Assembly: GCF_003334765.1 (NCBI RefSeq)
Contig: NZ_QOWT01000001.1
Strand: one strand, 5' to 3'
DNA from: Escherichia coli
GTDB taxonomy: Bacteria > Pseudomonadota > Gammaproteobacteria > Enterobacterales > Enterobacteriaceae
Length of the DNA: 64,000 nucleotides
Made by a program: the position numbers and the translations under genes
Part shown: piece by piece, positions 6,850-64,000 of the stretch
Position numbering within the stretch: the first letter of the stretch is position 1
Layout: each line of letters begins with the position of its first letter
The notes under the pieces: model-generated
What the model saw: the letters and a program-made list of their open reading frames with translations, nothing else
The model's database searches: none
What the model was told of the DNA's origin: nothing

Positions 6850-9642
<2,793 letters not shown>

Positions 9643-19919: not shown

Positions 19920-21200
19920 ATGTTACGTCCTGTAGAAACCCCAACCCGTGAAATCAAAAAACTCGACGGCCTGTGGGCATTCAGTCTGAATCGCGAAAAC
20001 TGTGGAATTGATCAGCGTTGGTGGGAAAGCGCGTTACAAGAAAGCCGGGCAATTGCTGTGCCAGGCAGTTTTAACGATCAGTTCGCCGATGCAGATATTC
20101 GTAATTATGCGGGCAACGTCTGGTATCAGCGCGAAGTCTTTATACCGAAAGGTTGGGCAGGCCAGCGTATCGTGCTGCGTTTCGATGCGGTCACTCATTA
20201 CGGCAAAGTGTGGGTCAATAATCAGGAAGTGATGGAGCATCAGGGCGGCTATACGCCATTTGAAGCCGATGTCACGCCGTATGTTATTGCCGGGAAAAGT
20301 GTACGTATCACCGTTTGTGTGAACAACGAACTGAACTGGCAGACTATCCCGCCGGGAATGGTGATTACCGACGAAAACGGCAAGAAAAAGCAGTCTTACT
20401 TCCATGATTTCTTTAACTATGCCGGGATCCATCGCAGCGTAATGCTCTACACCACGCCGAACACCTGGGTGGACGATATCACCGTGGTGACGCATGTCGC
20501 GCAAGACTGTAACCACGCGTCTGTTGACTGGCAGGTGGTGGCCAATGGTGATGTCAGCGTTGAACTGCGTGATGCGGATCAACAGGTGGTTGCAACTGGA
20601 CAAGGCACTAGCGGGACTTTGCAAGTGGTGAATCCGCACCTCTGGCAACCGGGTGAAGGTTATCTCTATGAACTGTGCGTCACAGCCAAAAGCCAGACAG
20701 AGTGTGATATCTACCCGCTTCGCGTCGGCATCCGGTCAGTGGCAGTGAAGGGCGAACAGTTCCTGATTAACCACAAACCGTTCTACTTTACTGGCTTTGG
20801 TCGTCATGAAGATGCGGACTTGCGTGGCAAAGGATTCGATAACGTGCTGATGGTGCACGACCACGCATTAATGGACTGGATTGGGGCCAACTCCTACCGT
20901 ACCTCGCATTACCCTTACGCTGAAGAGATGCTCGACTGGGCAGATGAACATGGCATCGTGGTGATTGATGAAACTGCTGCTGTCGGCTTTAACCTCTCTT
21001 TAGGCATTGGTTTCGAAGCGGGCAACAAGCCGAAAGAACTGTACAGCGAAGAGGCAGTCAACGGGGAAACTCAGCAAGCGCACTCTTGCTACCGCGATGA
21101 CCCAACAACCACAATCCCGCGCCCGTCTGGGCGCGGCTCGTGGGATTGCCACTTCATTGACCTTTGTCTGCCTGGCATTTCTGATAGGACCGAGCATTAA
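19920..21200 (+). pseudogene. uidA: beta-glucuronidase, 3'-truncated (about residues 1-388 then out-of-frame tail)
   Basis: 426-aa ORF matches GUS through ...[12 protein letters not shown], then 38 unrelated residues and a stop; expected about 603 aa. Confidence 0.8.
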
Positions 21201-28363: not shown

Positions 28364-30726
<2,363 letters not shown>

Positions 30727-32921: not shown

Positions 32922-33257
32922 ATGGGGCTGGTAATCAAAGCCGCGCTCGGTGCGCTGATAGTGCTGTTGATTGGTGTTTTAGCAAAAACGAAAAATTATT
33001 ATATCGCCGGGCTGATTCCACTTTTCCCGACCTTTGCGCTTATCGCGCATTATATTGTTGCCAGCGAACGCGGCATTGAAGCCTTACGCGCAACCATCAT
33101 TTTTAGTATGTGGTCGATTATTCCCTATTTTGTTTACCTGGTGTCGCTGTGGTATTTCACCGGAATGATGCGCTTGCCCGCCGCTTTTGTTGGTTCTGTT
33201 GCGTGTTGGGGGATAAGCGCATGGGTGTTGATTATATGCTGGATAAAGCTGCATTAA
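32922..33257 (+). CDS. ydgC: GlpM-family inner membrane protein
   Basis: 111-aa hydrophobic ORF. Confidence 0.85.
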   Translation: MGLVIKAALGALIVLLIGVLAKTKNYYIAGLIPLFPTFALIAHYIVASERGIEALRATIIFSMWSIIPYFVYLVSLWYFTGMMRLPAAFVGSVACWGISAWVLIICWIKLH

Positions 33258-47608: not shown

Positions 47609-47732
47609 CATTTTTTAACTGTTCTACCAAAATTTGCGCTATCTCAATTTGGGCCAGGAAAGCATAACTTAGACTTTCAAGGTTAATTATTTTCCTGGTT
47701 TATATTTGTGAAGCATAACGGTGGAGTTAGTG

Positions 47733-48428
47733 ATGCTGAAGCGTTTCTTTATTACCGGTACAGACACTTCTGTAGGGAAAACGGTGGTTTCCCGCGCATT
47801 GCTACAAGCGTTAGCCTCCCAGGGAAAAACGGTTGCGGGATATAAACCCGTAGCGAAGGGGAGCAAAGAGACACCCGAAGGGCTGCGTAATAAAGATGCC
47901 CTGGTGTTGCAGAGTGTTTCAACCATCGAACTGCCTTATGAAGCAGTTAATCCTATCGCGTTAAGCGAAGAAGAAAGTAGCGTGGCGCACAGTTGCCCAA
48001 TCAATTACACCCTCATTTCAAACGGCCTGGCAAACCTGACCGAAAAAGTCGATCATGTCGTGGTAGAAGGGACTGGCGGCTGGCGCAGTCTGATGAATGA
48101 TTTGCGTCCACTCTCTGAATGGGTAGTGCAGGAACAACTGCCGGTGTTGATGGTTGTCGGTATTCAGGAAGGTTGCATTAACCATGCACTGCTAACAGCT
48201 CAGGCGATCGCCAACGACGGGCTGCCGCTCATTGGCTGGGTGGCTAACCGAATCAACCCAGGACTGGCGCATTATGCGGAAATCATTGATGTGCTGGGTA
48301 AAAAACTTCCGGCACCGCTCATTGGTGAACTGCCTTATCTGCCGCGCGCCGAACAGCGTGAACTGGGGCAATACATCCGCTTAGCTATGCTGCGCAGTGT
48401 GCTGGCGGTAGATAGAGTCACGGTGTAA
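47733..48428 (+). CDS. ynfK: dethiobiotin synthetase paralog (BioD-like)
   Basis: start placed at [17 protein letters not shown] (P-loop) within the 235-aa ORF; exact start uncertain. Confidence 0.85.
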
Positions 48429-49637
48429 CGTCCGCGAAATTACCGACGCAATTACGCAGGCAATCAATAAACCGGGGAGTAGCTGATACTCCCCGGTCAT
48501 TTCACATATCATCAACGTCGACATAATCGGCGCGTGCGTGGTCGCCGCCAACAGTGTCGCCATCCCGGTCAATCCGAGTAAAAGTGTAATTTCTTCGCCA
48601 TCAGGGAACCATAATCCCAGGCTACGACCATACAACATGCCAATGGCAAGACCGATAAATAGCGTCGGTGTAAAGACCCCACCGGGTGCGCCGGAACCGC
48701 TACTCGCCAGCACGGCACACAGTTTACAAAGGAAGATCCCGGCAATGATCATTAACAGTGGTGGGGCGGTTAAAAAGGATTGTACGGTGCTATAGCCGTT
48801 GCCCCACACTGCAGGTGTGAACAGGGAAAGCAGACCCACGATCAACCCGCCTAGTGCCAGTTGCCAGGGCGGCGCAAGTTTGAGACTCACAAATCCACGA
48901 TGACAGGCGTTCATTAACGTTAACAACAGTGGTCCGCACAGACCTGCCAGCACACCTGTACTGATAATCAGCGCATAGTCACGAGCCTGAACCGTCACTG
49001 AGAGTTGTACGTTGTAGAGTAACGCGTCGCTATGATTAATCAGATTGCTAACCAGCAATGCCACGACGGCGGAAATAATCACCGGGCCGAGAGAGGCCAA
49101 CATCATAGTGCCAAACAGCACTTCGGCTATAAATAAACTGCCAGCAAGCGGGGCACGATAGGCCGCAGCCATTCCCGCCGCGGCCCCACAGGCGATCCAT
49201 AATTTCCACTCCTGGCGTGGCGTAAAACGTTGGGCAAAACAGGAGGCGGCAAGGGCAGCTAAAAGAATCATCGCACCTTCGCGACCAATTGCACTGCCGC
49301 TGGTTACTACCAGCAGAGAGGCAAGCGATTTAACCAGGCTTGCTGCGTAATCGAACTGTCCATCGGTTTGCAACGCTTCCATATAATCGGTCGGCGCATG
49401 AGGGCGTTGTTGGGTAAATTTCTGCCAGCCCATCAGCAACAAACCCGCCGCCAGTCCGCCGAGCGCCGGAGTTAGCAACCGTCGCCAGGGGGAAAGGTTT
49501 GTCGCTGCATTGACCAGACTGCCGGAGTCATTATTGAGGAACAACCACTCCAGTAGCAGCATCGCATGACGAAACCCGGCAACGGCAAAGGCCGCGAGAA
49601 TACCGACGACTGTTGCGATAAGCAGACGGCGGAACAT
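48381..49637 (-). CDS. clcB: ClC-family voltage-gated chloride channel
   Basis: start placed at [19 protein letters not shown] within the 438-aa ORF, giving 418 aa; GxGIP-type motifs. Confidence 0.88.
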
Positions 49638-49831
49638 AGTGCGCAGATCCGGATAGATGTGTAGATGATGCATGAGCAGAAATGGGCAATGAAACACGGG
49701 CGACTATTTTGCGGCAAAAGAGGCCAGCCGCAAAAGCAGTGCGTGCTTTAAGAGATAAAAAAACGTGACACTGTAACCTATTATTGCCGGATTGCGCGTA
49801 ATCGTCACCATCCGGCAATATTACGGTGATC

Positions 49832-62243: not shown

Positions 62244-63539
62244 TTAATTTTTCATTGCTTCGTTATGGGGCATGGTTGGGGCAAACTCGCTTAACTGTGT
62301 ATTTAACAAAGCTACCTGTGCATTATTGTTTTCAGACATCCATTTTCCGTATACCTGAAATACCATTTGCGCATCTGCATGGCCCATCTGGTTTGCTATA
62401 AATGCCGGGTTAGCACCAGCTGTCAGCGACCAGCAGGCATAAGTATGTCTCGACTGATATGATTTTCGATGGCGGAGTCCGGCACGTTTTATCGCTGCGT
62501 CCCACATCTGCCTTATTGAGTCAACGGTAAAATGGTCACCATAATTTTTTACTCTCGCTGACACTTCAGGTTGAAAAACAAAGGTGCATTTTTGTTTTTC
62601 TGTTCTGCCATACTCTCTGAGGTGAACATCAATGATATGCTCTTTGCTCAGTCTCGTTAATGTCATCTGACTCCGGAGAGCGTCGATTGCTGGCTTAATA
62701 AGATGAATGACCCGATTGGTTCCCGCCTGTGTTTTTGGTACCGTGAAACGGTCTTTTGCTAAATTTCTCCTGATCATCATTGTTCCATTTTTCAGATCTA
62801 TGTCCTCCCATCCAAGTGCACACAGCTCACCAGGGCGAACTCCAGTATAAACAGAAACACACCATAAATTTTTTGCTTGCTGATTTCTGCACGCATCGAT
62901 AAGACGGATAAATTCTTCCCGCGAAAGAGGATCCGGAATGGTTCTTGATTCCTTTAATGGCGAGATCCCCTTAAACGGATTATCTGCCAGGTAACCGTTA
63001 TCAACACCAAACTGGAACACGGCGTTAAGATTTGTCATGTAATTATTTACAGTTACAGCCGATCTCCCTGGTTGTGTAACAATATAGTTACTTTTGGGGA
63101 TCTGGTATCCAGTCAGTAACTCTTTACGAACCTCCAGTAATTTTTCTTTATTAATCGATGAGGCAAGATTTTTTTCACCGATTATGCTCAGGATATTTTT
63201 GATGACGGCACGGTATGTGTTGAGTGATGTTTTGGCGACTTCAGTTTCTTTCAGTGCCAGAAATTTTTCAGCCAGTTCTTTTATGGTTAAATCTTGTCGG
63301 GCCTCACCAAATTTTTCCAGATTGCGTGAGGAGGGAAACTGTTTTGCATAGTCGAAAACACCAGTTTTTATTGCGTAACAAACAGAGGAGCGTAGTTCAC
63401 CTGCAACGCGCCTGTTTTTTGCTGTGTCAGGAACCCCCAGATTTTCCCTGACTCTTACGTCTTTATAAACAAACCAGATACGTAATTTCCCTCCATGGTT
63501 TTCCACGCCTGTCGGATATTTCATTTCAACTTCTCTCAT
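62244..63539 (-). CDS. intQ: phage tyrosine integrase
   Basis: 431-aa ORF (true start may be the internal MKYPTGVENHGG); C-terminal catalytic region with R...HxxR...Y-type motifs (HRKSYQSRHTYA...HADAQMVFQVYGKW). Confidence 0.8.
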   Translation of the reverse strand: MREVEMKYPTGVENHGGKLRIWFVYKDVRVRENLGVPDTAKNRRVAGELRSSVCYAIKTGVFDYAKQFPSSRNLEKFGEARQDLTIKELAEKFLALKETEVAKTSLNTYRAVIKNILSIIGEKNLASSINKEKLLEVRKELLTGYQIPKSNYIVTQPGRSAVTVNNYMTNLNAVFQFGVDNGYLADNPFKGISPLKESRTIPDPLSREEFIRLIDACRNQQAKNLWCVSVYTGVRPGELCALGWEDIDLKNGTMMIRRNLAKDRFTVPKTQAGTNRVIHLIKPAIDALRSQMTLTRLSKEHIIDVHLREYGRTEKQKCTFVFQPEVSARVKNYGDHFTVDSIRQMWDAAIKRAGLRHRKSYQSRHTYACWSLTAGANPAFIANQMGHADAQMVFQVYGKWMSENNNAQVALLNTQLSEFAPTMPHNEAMKN

Positions 63540-63558
63540 TAGTTAGTGTGGCTTTTAG

Positions 63559-63810
63559 TCAAGTAAGATGACGTCTTGGTCTCGCTGATGCCTGGCGCTC
63601 AATCCAGCGATCAATTTCTTCCAGGTTGTAAAAGCATGGACTGTTATCCCATGGCATACCGTCATGAGCGACATGCTTATATTCCCTTCCTTCCATAAAC
63701 GATTTTTCCCGGGCCTTTTTTAACGTACCTTTTTTTATTCCTTTCAGCGCAATTAACTGCTCTTCGGATACCCATTTGCCGGGAGAGACAATCATGATTA
63801 CTTCGCTCAT
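63559..63810 (-). CDS. excisionase-like protein (DUF1233-type)
   Basis: 83-aa ORF ...VSPGKWVSEEQLIALKGIKKGTL... immediately upstream of int; family assignment from memory. Confidence 0.55.
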   Translation of the reverse strand: MSEVIMIVSPGKWVSEEQLIALKGIKKGTLKKAREKSFMEGREYKHVAHDGMPWDNSPCFYNLEEIDRWIERQASARPRRHLT

Positions 63811-63882
63811 CGATTTCTTTATCTCTTACATCAGACGAGCGCCGGTTGCAGAATACCAGTCACAACCGGCGACAGTTGAACA

Positions 63883-63999
63883 TTAAGAATCAGCCTGACT
63901 CGGGATCAGTTTTTGCCAGATAACTGAAACGTATTTTGCCTGGTAACGGGCGTCATCAAGTGCATTATGGCGCTCACCTTCGAATGGAATAGCCGTTCT
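63883..63999 (-). CDS. 3' end of a DEDDh-type (DnaQ-like) exonuclease gene, partial at window edge
   Basis: minus strand translates to RTAIPFEGERHNALDDARYQAKYVSVIWQKLIPSQADS then stop; HNALDDA resembles Exo III motif. Confidence 0.4.
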   Translation of the reverse strand, partial: RTAIPFEGERHNALDDARYQAKYVSVIWQKLIPSQADS

Positions 64000-64000
64000 G

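Follow-up and report, generated by a model that had tools for sequence, protein, structure and literature searches.

Convergent genes ynfK and clcB of Enterobacteriaceae: a conserved dual-coding overlap and a probable ynfK 3'-end hairpin within clcB

The convergent genes ynfK and clcB of Escherichia coli share their last 48 bp. Comparison across the Enterobacteriaceae suggests, with a probability of roughly 0.7, that this is an old and selectively maintained overlap of two real genes, in which the 3' UTR of ynfK and a stem-loop at the 3' end of its mRNA are embedded in the final ~40 codons of clcB. The window, i.e., the whole stretch of 64,000 nucleotides that was analyzed, corresponds to a K-12-like chromosome read as its reverse complement and shows 99.97% identity with MG1655 across about 62 kb, with 16 mismatches. 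At 21084/21085, 1,039 bp (MG1655 1693868-1694906) reaching from the 5' end of uidB to the 3' end of uidA are absent; this junction has no contiguous match in 5,426 complete E. coli genomes, and the deletion may be strain-specific or engineered. The last ~600 bases (63404-64000) could not be aligned with their MG1655 counterpart (IS2E / Qin prophage edge), and rsxC contains tandem 96-bp repeats (6896-7416) that give self-offset BLAST matches at multiples of 96 bp with 88-91% identity. The features of the ynfK-clcB region are listed in Table 1.

Table 1. Features of the ynfK-clcB region, in window coordinates
Feature	Position	Strand	Description
Transcription start site of the monocistronic ynfK unit	47682 (MG1655 1667270, reverse strand)	+	SMRT-Cappable-seq (Yan et al. 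2018, PMC6131387)
ynfK (bidA, b1593)	47733..48428	+	231 aa; BioD paralogue (dethiobiotin synthetase); ORF and MG1655 annotation
clcB (b1592)	48381..49637	-	418 aa by the K-12 start; homologue of ClC-family Cl-/H+ transporters; ORF and annotation
Dual-coding overlap	48381..48428	both	48 bp, codons in register
Spacer of the putative ynfK 3' UTR	48429..48470	+	antisense to clcB codons 390-403
Highest Rho score, bicyclomycin-sensitive region	48438 (MG1655 1666514, - strand)	+	Adams et al. 2021 (eLife, PMC7815308)
Stem-loop ACCGGGGAGTA-GCTGA-TACTCCCCGGT	48471..48497	+	11-bp perfect inverted repeat, 5-nt loop; putative ynfK terminator or 3'-protective hairpin
Moderately C-rich, G-poor stretch	48498..48640	+	possible Rho loading region, weak; C/G ratio 1.3-1.85

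In the ORF list and the sequence, the TAA stop codon of ynfK lies at 48426-48428 and that of clcB, seen as TTA on the plus strand, at 48381-48383, which bears out the 48-bp overlap claimed in the original prediction. The two reading frames are in register, such that codon position 2 of each gene faces position 2 of its partner. YnfK L217-V231 plus stop faces ClcB L404-S418 plus stop, the TAA of each gene faces a TTA Leu codon in the other, and 15 sense codons per gene are thereby tied down. The stop positions agree with reference annotation: the MG1655 record (clcB 1665315..1666571, plus strand; bidA/b1593 1666524..1667219, minus strand) contains the identical overlap, and it is unchanged in the PGAP records of three further E. 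coli strains with identities down to 97.8%. Since the overlap is already present in the reference annotation, it is of limited interest alone. The start of clcB is ambiguous (49637-49697), with 418 aa in K-12 and 430 aa according to PGAP (12 codons upstream); the longest ORF, which starts with GTG at 49697, gives 438 aa. Of the eight convergent gene pairs in the window, three overlap. The 4-bp overlaps of ydgC/folM (33254-33257) and fumC/tus (29764-29767), to which the prediction had likened the larger one, are annotated as well, and each consists of a common TTAA that is a stop codon on both strands. It was further predicted that the transcripts of ynfK and clcB must be mutually antisense at their 3' ends. 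Full-length mRNAs are necessarily complementary over at least 48 nt, but the extent was understated, as the ynfK transcript probably contributes at least 117 nt (see below).

Of the 5,426 complete E. coli genomes, 5,416 contain the locus. In strain FDAARGOS_1337, clcB is interrupted by IS30, and in strain JNE070796 only the first 368 query bases are matched, the locus being truncated after the 5' part of ynfK. A scan with one genome per species yielded 80 ynfK loci from many genera of the Enterobacteriaceae. YnfK comprises 231 aa in all of them, and the position of its stop codon is constant. A clcB stop codon is found downstream of ynfK in 64 of the 80 loci (60 intact genes and 4 remnants), and in all 64 the two genes overlap in register. 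Twelve loci lack clcB, and the four with remnants retain a decayed 3' part alone. The overlap is thus conserved in other species and does not stem from a strain-specific stop loss. Its size is 39-66 bp in 63 loci: 48 bp in Escherichia, Klebsiella, Kluyvera, Raoultella and Buttiauxella, 45 bp in Salmonella and Citrobacter, 66 bp in Enterobacter and Leclercia, and 39 bp in R. terrigena. In the remaining locus, that of Superficieibacter electus, it amounts to 240 bp. There the usual clcB stop is lost, ynfK codon 217 reads CTT, and the clcB ORF extends 240 bp into ynfK antisense (L067:3457-3696); this is a natural case of overlap growth through stop loss. The sizes of 39, 45, 48, 66 and 240 bp indicate that the clcB stop hopped between in-register positions while the ynfK stop remained fixed.

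Both proteins are conserved along their full length in 61-80 species loci, and on this comparative evidence both tails are genuine coding sequence. The match of YnfK to E. coli BioD structures (E 3e-65, residues 3-220) reaches the very end of BioD, beyond which YnfK carries a tail of 11 aa (221-231). Variability in this tail exceeds that in the remainder of YnfK 3-4 times; its motif (V/A)DR(V/I)xA and the length of 231 aa are retained in species without clcB. An origin of the tail by stop loss relative to BioD was considered and is weakened by distant YnfK-like proteins, which bear unrelated tails of 9-13 aa. ClcB aligns with ClcA structures through residue 402 (E 1e-26). With 418 residues compared with 473 in ClcA, the ClcB C-terminus falls far short of the ClcA end, so that the ClcB tail lies within the ClC fold and is not an added extension. 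A search for homologous proteins with ClcB returned close Enterobacteriaceae alone. In an outgroup (GCA_001238615.1, L087:1-6699), YnfK has 65% identity, 232 aa and an unrelated 13-aa tail, EQNNLHAVSAKIA; the gene order is ynfM-ynfL-mlc-ynfK, followed by a co-directional xanthine/uracil permease gene in place of clcB. The linkage of mlc and ynfK therefore predates the adjacency of clcB. The outgroup has neither the hairpin nor the YnfK tail of the Enterobacteriaceae type. The Enterobacteriaceae-specific tail, with its V-D-R-V segment, could, with low probability, have been overprinted antisense on the helix end D-S-I-Y of ClcB and been retained after the loss of clcB; bearing on this reading is the outgroup, which has a different YnfK tail and no clcB.

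In this register a stop on one strand arises solely opposite TTA, CTA or TCA codons of the other gene, and these make up 3.0% of the codons of ynfK and 4.3% of those of clcB. About 0.5-0.6 of ORFs are expected to run on for 15 codons by chance. Given the scarcity of the three codons, a 15-codon run into the neighbor is unremarkable in itself. Unlike its bare existence, the conservation of the overlap exceeds chance. The YnfK segment V-D-R-V (GTA GAT AGA GTC) reads as ClcB D-S-I-Y on the opposite strand, and the rare AGA/CGA codon of YnfK Arg228 faces ClcB Ser408. Among the 64 loci where clcB or a remnant is present, 57 encode Arg228 by AGA or CGA; of the 12 loci without clcB, 9 use CGT, CGC or CGG. 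The ynfK stop codon is TAA or TAG in all 64 of the former and TGA in 8 of the 12 latter. When synonymous diversity was measured in 10-codon windows, the lowest values in ynfK were found at the start and in codons 218-231, with no other island of synonymous constraint within the gene, and in clcB some of the lowest values fall on codons 401-417. Apart from the hairpin described below and the ynfK start, the overlap has the lowest synonymous diversity in both genes. Sequence evolution in the overlap is constrained from both frames.

The hairpin begins after a 42-nt gap from the ynfK stop (43-69 nt past the stop) and lies within clcB codons 381-389 (T-G-E-Y-Q-L-L-P-G), in which Tyr384 aligns with the Tyr of the ClcA motif EMTDNYQL(ILP). 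Its stem contains 11 bp, or 12 with a terminal G.T pair, of which 7 are G-C pairs. The 92 nt that follow the ynfK stop (48429-48520) have a minimum free energy of -28.8 kcal/mol (z = -4.84). Across 68 loci with 64 distinct sequences, 92.8% of the stem cells are paired, compared with 19-43% in controls with slid arms. Pair 20-34 alternates between C-G (36) and G-C (19), although true double-sided covariation is confined to two pairs and probably reflects few evolutionary events. The hairpin resembles no known RNA family; the sole match in Rfam scored 23 bits against a gathering threshold of 55 (E = 0.52) and belongs to an unrelated Bacillus antitoxin model.

The three windows of lowest synonymous diversity in clcB (0.30-0.32, with a gene mean of 0.53 and about 409 windows) all fall on the hairpin. 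Across 61 species, Thr381 (ACC) and Pro388 (CCC) show no variation at their four-fold sites, CCC being rarely used in E. coli. Both arms of the stem code for conserved residues, and the amino acid sequence alone accounts for about -8.6 kcal/mol. This value was obtained by recoding clcB codons 379-392 synonymously with the codon usage of each species; on the ynfK strand the native hairpins have a mean of -17.5 kcal/mol and the recoded ones of -8.6 kcal/mol. In all 61 species the native stem is more stable than its synonymous recodings. The median fraction of recodings that are at least as stable is 0.008, with a maximum of 0.16 on the ynfK strand and values of up to 0.87 on the clcB strand. Mean hairpin stability is equal on both strands. 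G.U pairs on the ynfK strand, which are C.A mismatches on the clcB strand, occupy 49 cells; the opposite wobble, G.U on the clcB strand, occupies 31, of which 28 are at the apical pair. The wobble pairs thus favor the ynfK strand, as the recodings do. Together with the Rho data and the loci without clcB described below, these results make it most likely that the hairpin is a 3'-end element of ynfK. A ynfK transcript ending there would be antisense to 117 nt or more of clcB (48381-48497).

A canonical intrinsic terminator for ynfK was ruled out, since the stem is followed on the ynfK strand by CAUUUCACA and not by a U-tract. Published transcript data are consistent with an end that depends on Rho. 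The gene is directly activated by FNR (PMC3688515). The supplement of the SMRT-Cappable-seq study (Yan et al. 2018, PMC6131387) contains the ynfK start site and nothing more on the ends of ynfK or clcB. Supplementary file 2 of Adams et al. 2021 (PMC7815308) assigns a Rho-dependent 3' region seen by DirectRNA-seq to the class 'primary ynfK, antisense clcB', with a Rho score of 4.2 (p = 1.5e-6); read counts upstream and downstream are 85 and 11 without bicyclomycin and 292 and 159 with it. The coordinate of this region, which lies upstream of the hairpin, derives from 800-nt windows and is of low resolution. Neither ynfK nor clcB occurs in the curated Term-seq table of the same study, probably due to weak aerobic expression of both genes, and the published data searched contain no nucleotide-resolution 3' end for either. 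Downstream of the hairpin, a 78-nt segment starting at 48560 has the highest C/G ratio on the plus strand within 47700-49650, yet the ratio is modest. A weak genomic SELEX peak of HusR (YnfL) is located within ynfK (paper coordinate 1,664,668, intensity 72; PMC12844172). Rho-dependent transcripts of E. coli end right after stable stem-loops that lack a U-tract and guard against exonucleases (Dar and Sorek 2018, PMC6061677). Of the four features of this protective class, two were found at the hairpin.

Loci in which clcB decayed or vanished provide a further view of the hairpin. In the four remnants (L014, L024, L052 and L055) the reading frame is broken and the stems are intact. A stop codon interrupts the loop of L014, which also carries two deletions, L024 has lost bases from the stretch that separates the ynfK stop from the hairpin, and L052 and L055 are strongly diverged; some of the remnants may be too recent for decay. 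In two species of Trabulsiella and in Lelliottia the hairpin alone remains beside ynfK, with identical stems and diverged flanks; these loci probably share one deletion event. The counterpart of the spacer between the ynfK stop and the hairpin is shortened by deletions in lineages that lost clcB. In two Citrobacter amalonaticus-like loci (L016 and L019), the same GGGGAG/CTCCCC stem is followed by T7-8 and forms a canonical terminator. A U-tract 3' of the stem was found solely in these lineages, which lack clcB. It could not have arisen earlier because the sequence encoded C-E-M-T of ClcB. Kosakonia-like loci have an unrelated canonical terminator immediately 3' of ynfK.

Based on these observations, the following sequence of events is proposed. 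Transcription of ynfK would start at about 47682 at the FNR-activated promoter, and ribosomes would halt at 48428. The GC-rich hairpin would then fold in the untranslated RNA 43-69 nt past the stop, and transcription would terminate just beyond it, mainly in a Rho-dependent or Rho-assisted manner. Reliance on Rho would follow from the coding function of clcB, as the codons for C-E-M-T (...GGUCAUUUCACA) forbid a proper U-tract. The hairpin would set the mature 3' end of ynfK and shield it from 3'-5' exonucleases. We infer that RNA 3' ends form at the hairpin and that the ynfK-sense RNA, and not clcB RNA or DNA, is the form under selection.

The hairpin might instead have been selected for clcB or for both strands, as a pause site or attenuator, as a bidirectional, collision-type terminator that halts untranslated clcB transcription before it enters ynfK, or as a DNA palindrome bound by a protein. 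The clcB strand folds equally well (-21.7 kcal/mol), in E. coli it is followed by the tail UUUAUUGAUU, and in that species a pattern scan flagged the hairpin as terminator-like on this strand only. Read on the clcB strand, 28 sequences have G.U as their apical pair, and hairpin-centered bidirectional terminators are known between convergent E. coli genes (bioRxiv 10.1101/2022.10.23.513370). The U-rich tail is, however, not conserved, being CUGCUGAUA in Klebsiella, and for several species recoded sequences fold just as well on the clcB strand (fraction up to 0.87). The hairpin is retained where clcB is a pseudogene or absent, and stopping clcB transcription 30 codons before the clcB stop would cut a conserved helix. 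A clcB terminator inside ynfK was also looked for and rejected, since 48260-48400 on the minus strand has a z of +0.6 and contains no stable structure past the clcB stop. Selection of the hairpin on behalf of clcB or of both strands is unlikely on balance.

According to a second alternative, the overlap and the hairpin are functionless: the genes were pushed together, their in-register ORFs ran on to chance TTA, CTA or TCA codons, and the hairpin is a by-product of the self-complementary codons for TG(E/Q)Y..LLPG. This agrees with a run-on of 15 codons that is expected about half the time in this register, with the -8.6 kcal/mol or so that the peptide alone yields, with the drift of the clcB stop (39, 45, 48, 66 and 240 bp) and with the three- to four-fold greater variability of the YnfK tail. 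It leaves unexplained why the four-fold sites of the stem, including the rare CCC, are invariant in a gene with a mean synonymous diversity of 0.53, why native stems surpass recodings in 61 of 61 species, and why the ynfK stop is fixed in 80 of 80 loci. Moreover, the stems outlast clcB coding, and a T-tract was gained after the constraint had gone. We regard this neutral explanation as improbable.

Just as doubtful is a conserved cis-antisense switch in which ynfK, driven anaerobically by FNR, lowers the synthesis of ClcB, or the reverse, either by polymerase collision or through a duplex of at least 117 nt that is cut by RNase III. Transcription of both genes would necessarily create complementarity of this length, FNR activates ynfK, the arrangement is retained throughout the family, and Rho restricts ynfK-strand transcription into clcB. 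On the other hand, the one clcB site in the RNase III table (MG1655 1665488) lies a long way from the overlap and is backed by minimal reads, many lineages lost clcB with ynfK unchanged, and dual coding together with the need for a ynfK 3' end already explains the conservation. An antisense effect of ynfK RNA on clcB is possible but unsupported. If the switch were real, it would couple a biotin-pathway paralogue to a chloride/proton transporter. Finally, misplacement of one stop codon by an annotation error or by a sequencing error, the latter being what the original prediction had named as its refutation, can be dismissed, because stop codons do not depend on the choice of gene caller, thousands of genomes contain the locus, MG1655, the PGAP records and divergent E. 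coli strains have identical stops, the overlap recurs in 64 other species loci, and nothing in support of such an artifact was found.

Under the preferred reading, in which the overlap is maintained by selection and the hairpin serves the ynfK 3' end, ~120 bp hold three layers of information: two proteins and an RNA 3'-end structure built around a conserved ClC tyrosine. The lineages without clcB provide a built-in evolutionary control, since codon choice is relaxed in them and a U-tract emerges. Caution is needed when clcB is recoded synonymously or deleted, as a Keio-type clcB deletion may take away the ynfK 3' end. For the annotation of terminators it follows that 3'-end elements can sit within neighboring genes, and the locus offers a test case for the protection of Rho-dependent ends. 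The literature search yielded no publication naming bidA, and the papers searched do not appear to describe the conservation throughout the family, the codon signatures or the embedded 3'-end element.

Conserved convergent overlapping genes in prokaryotes were reportedly described by Rogozin and co-workers in 2002. The TTAA overlaps of folM/ydgC and tus/fumC have the same tail-to-tail geometry as ynfK/clcB, but in these pairs the stops alone are common and no sense codon is constrained. Convergent orientation is the only one that permits long real overlaps, and most of the putatively real long convergent overlaps are conserved in very close species only (Palleja, Harrington and Bork 2008, PMC2478687). 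As in that class, ynfK and clcB are genuine genes with a common 3' coding sequence whose length is a multiple of 3 nt and with stops opposite Leu/Ser codons. Unlike most of its members, their overlap (45-66 bp) is kept across many genera of the Enterobacteriaceae and bears dual-coding codon signatures. The hairpin shares with the stem-loops of Dar and Sorek (2018, PMC6061677) that it is stable, GC-rich and without a U-tract and that read-through is sensitive to bicyclomycin; it differs from them in being embedded in the coding sequence of the convergent neighbor, in a conserved ClC motif, where a 3' end probably forms. The bidirectional terminators of Ju et al. 2019, as summarized in bioRxiv 10.1101/2022.10.23.513370, likewise belong to convergent pairs, center on hairpins that can fold on both strands and are non-canonical. 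They are located between genes and are described as Rho-independent, in contrast to the ynfK hairpin, which lies inside clcB, within codons 381-389 and 30 codons before the stop, at an end that is sensitive to Rho.
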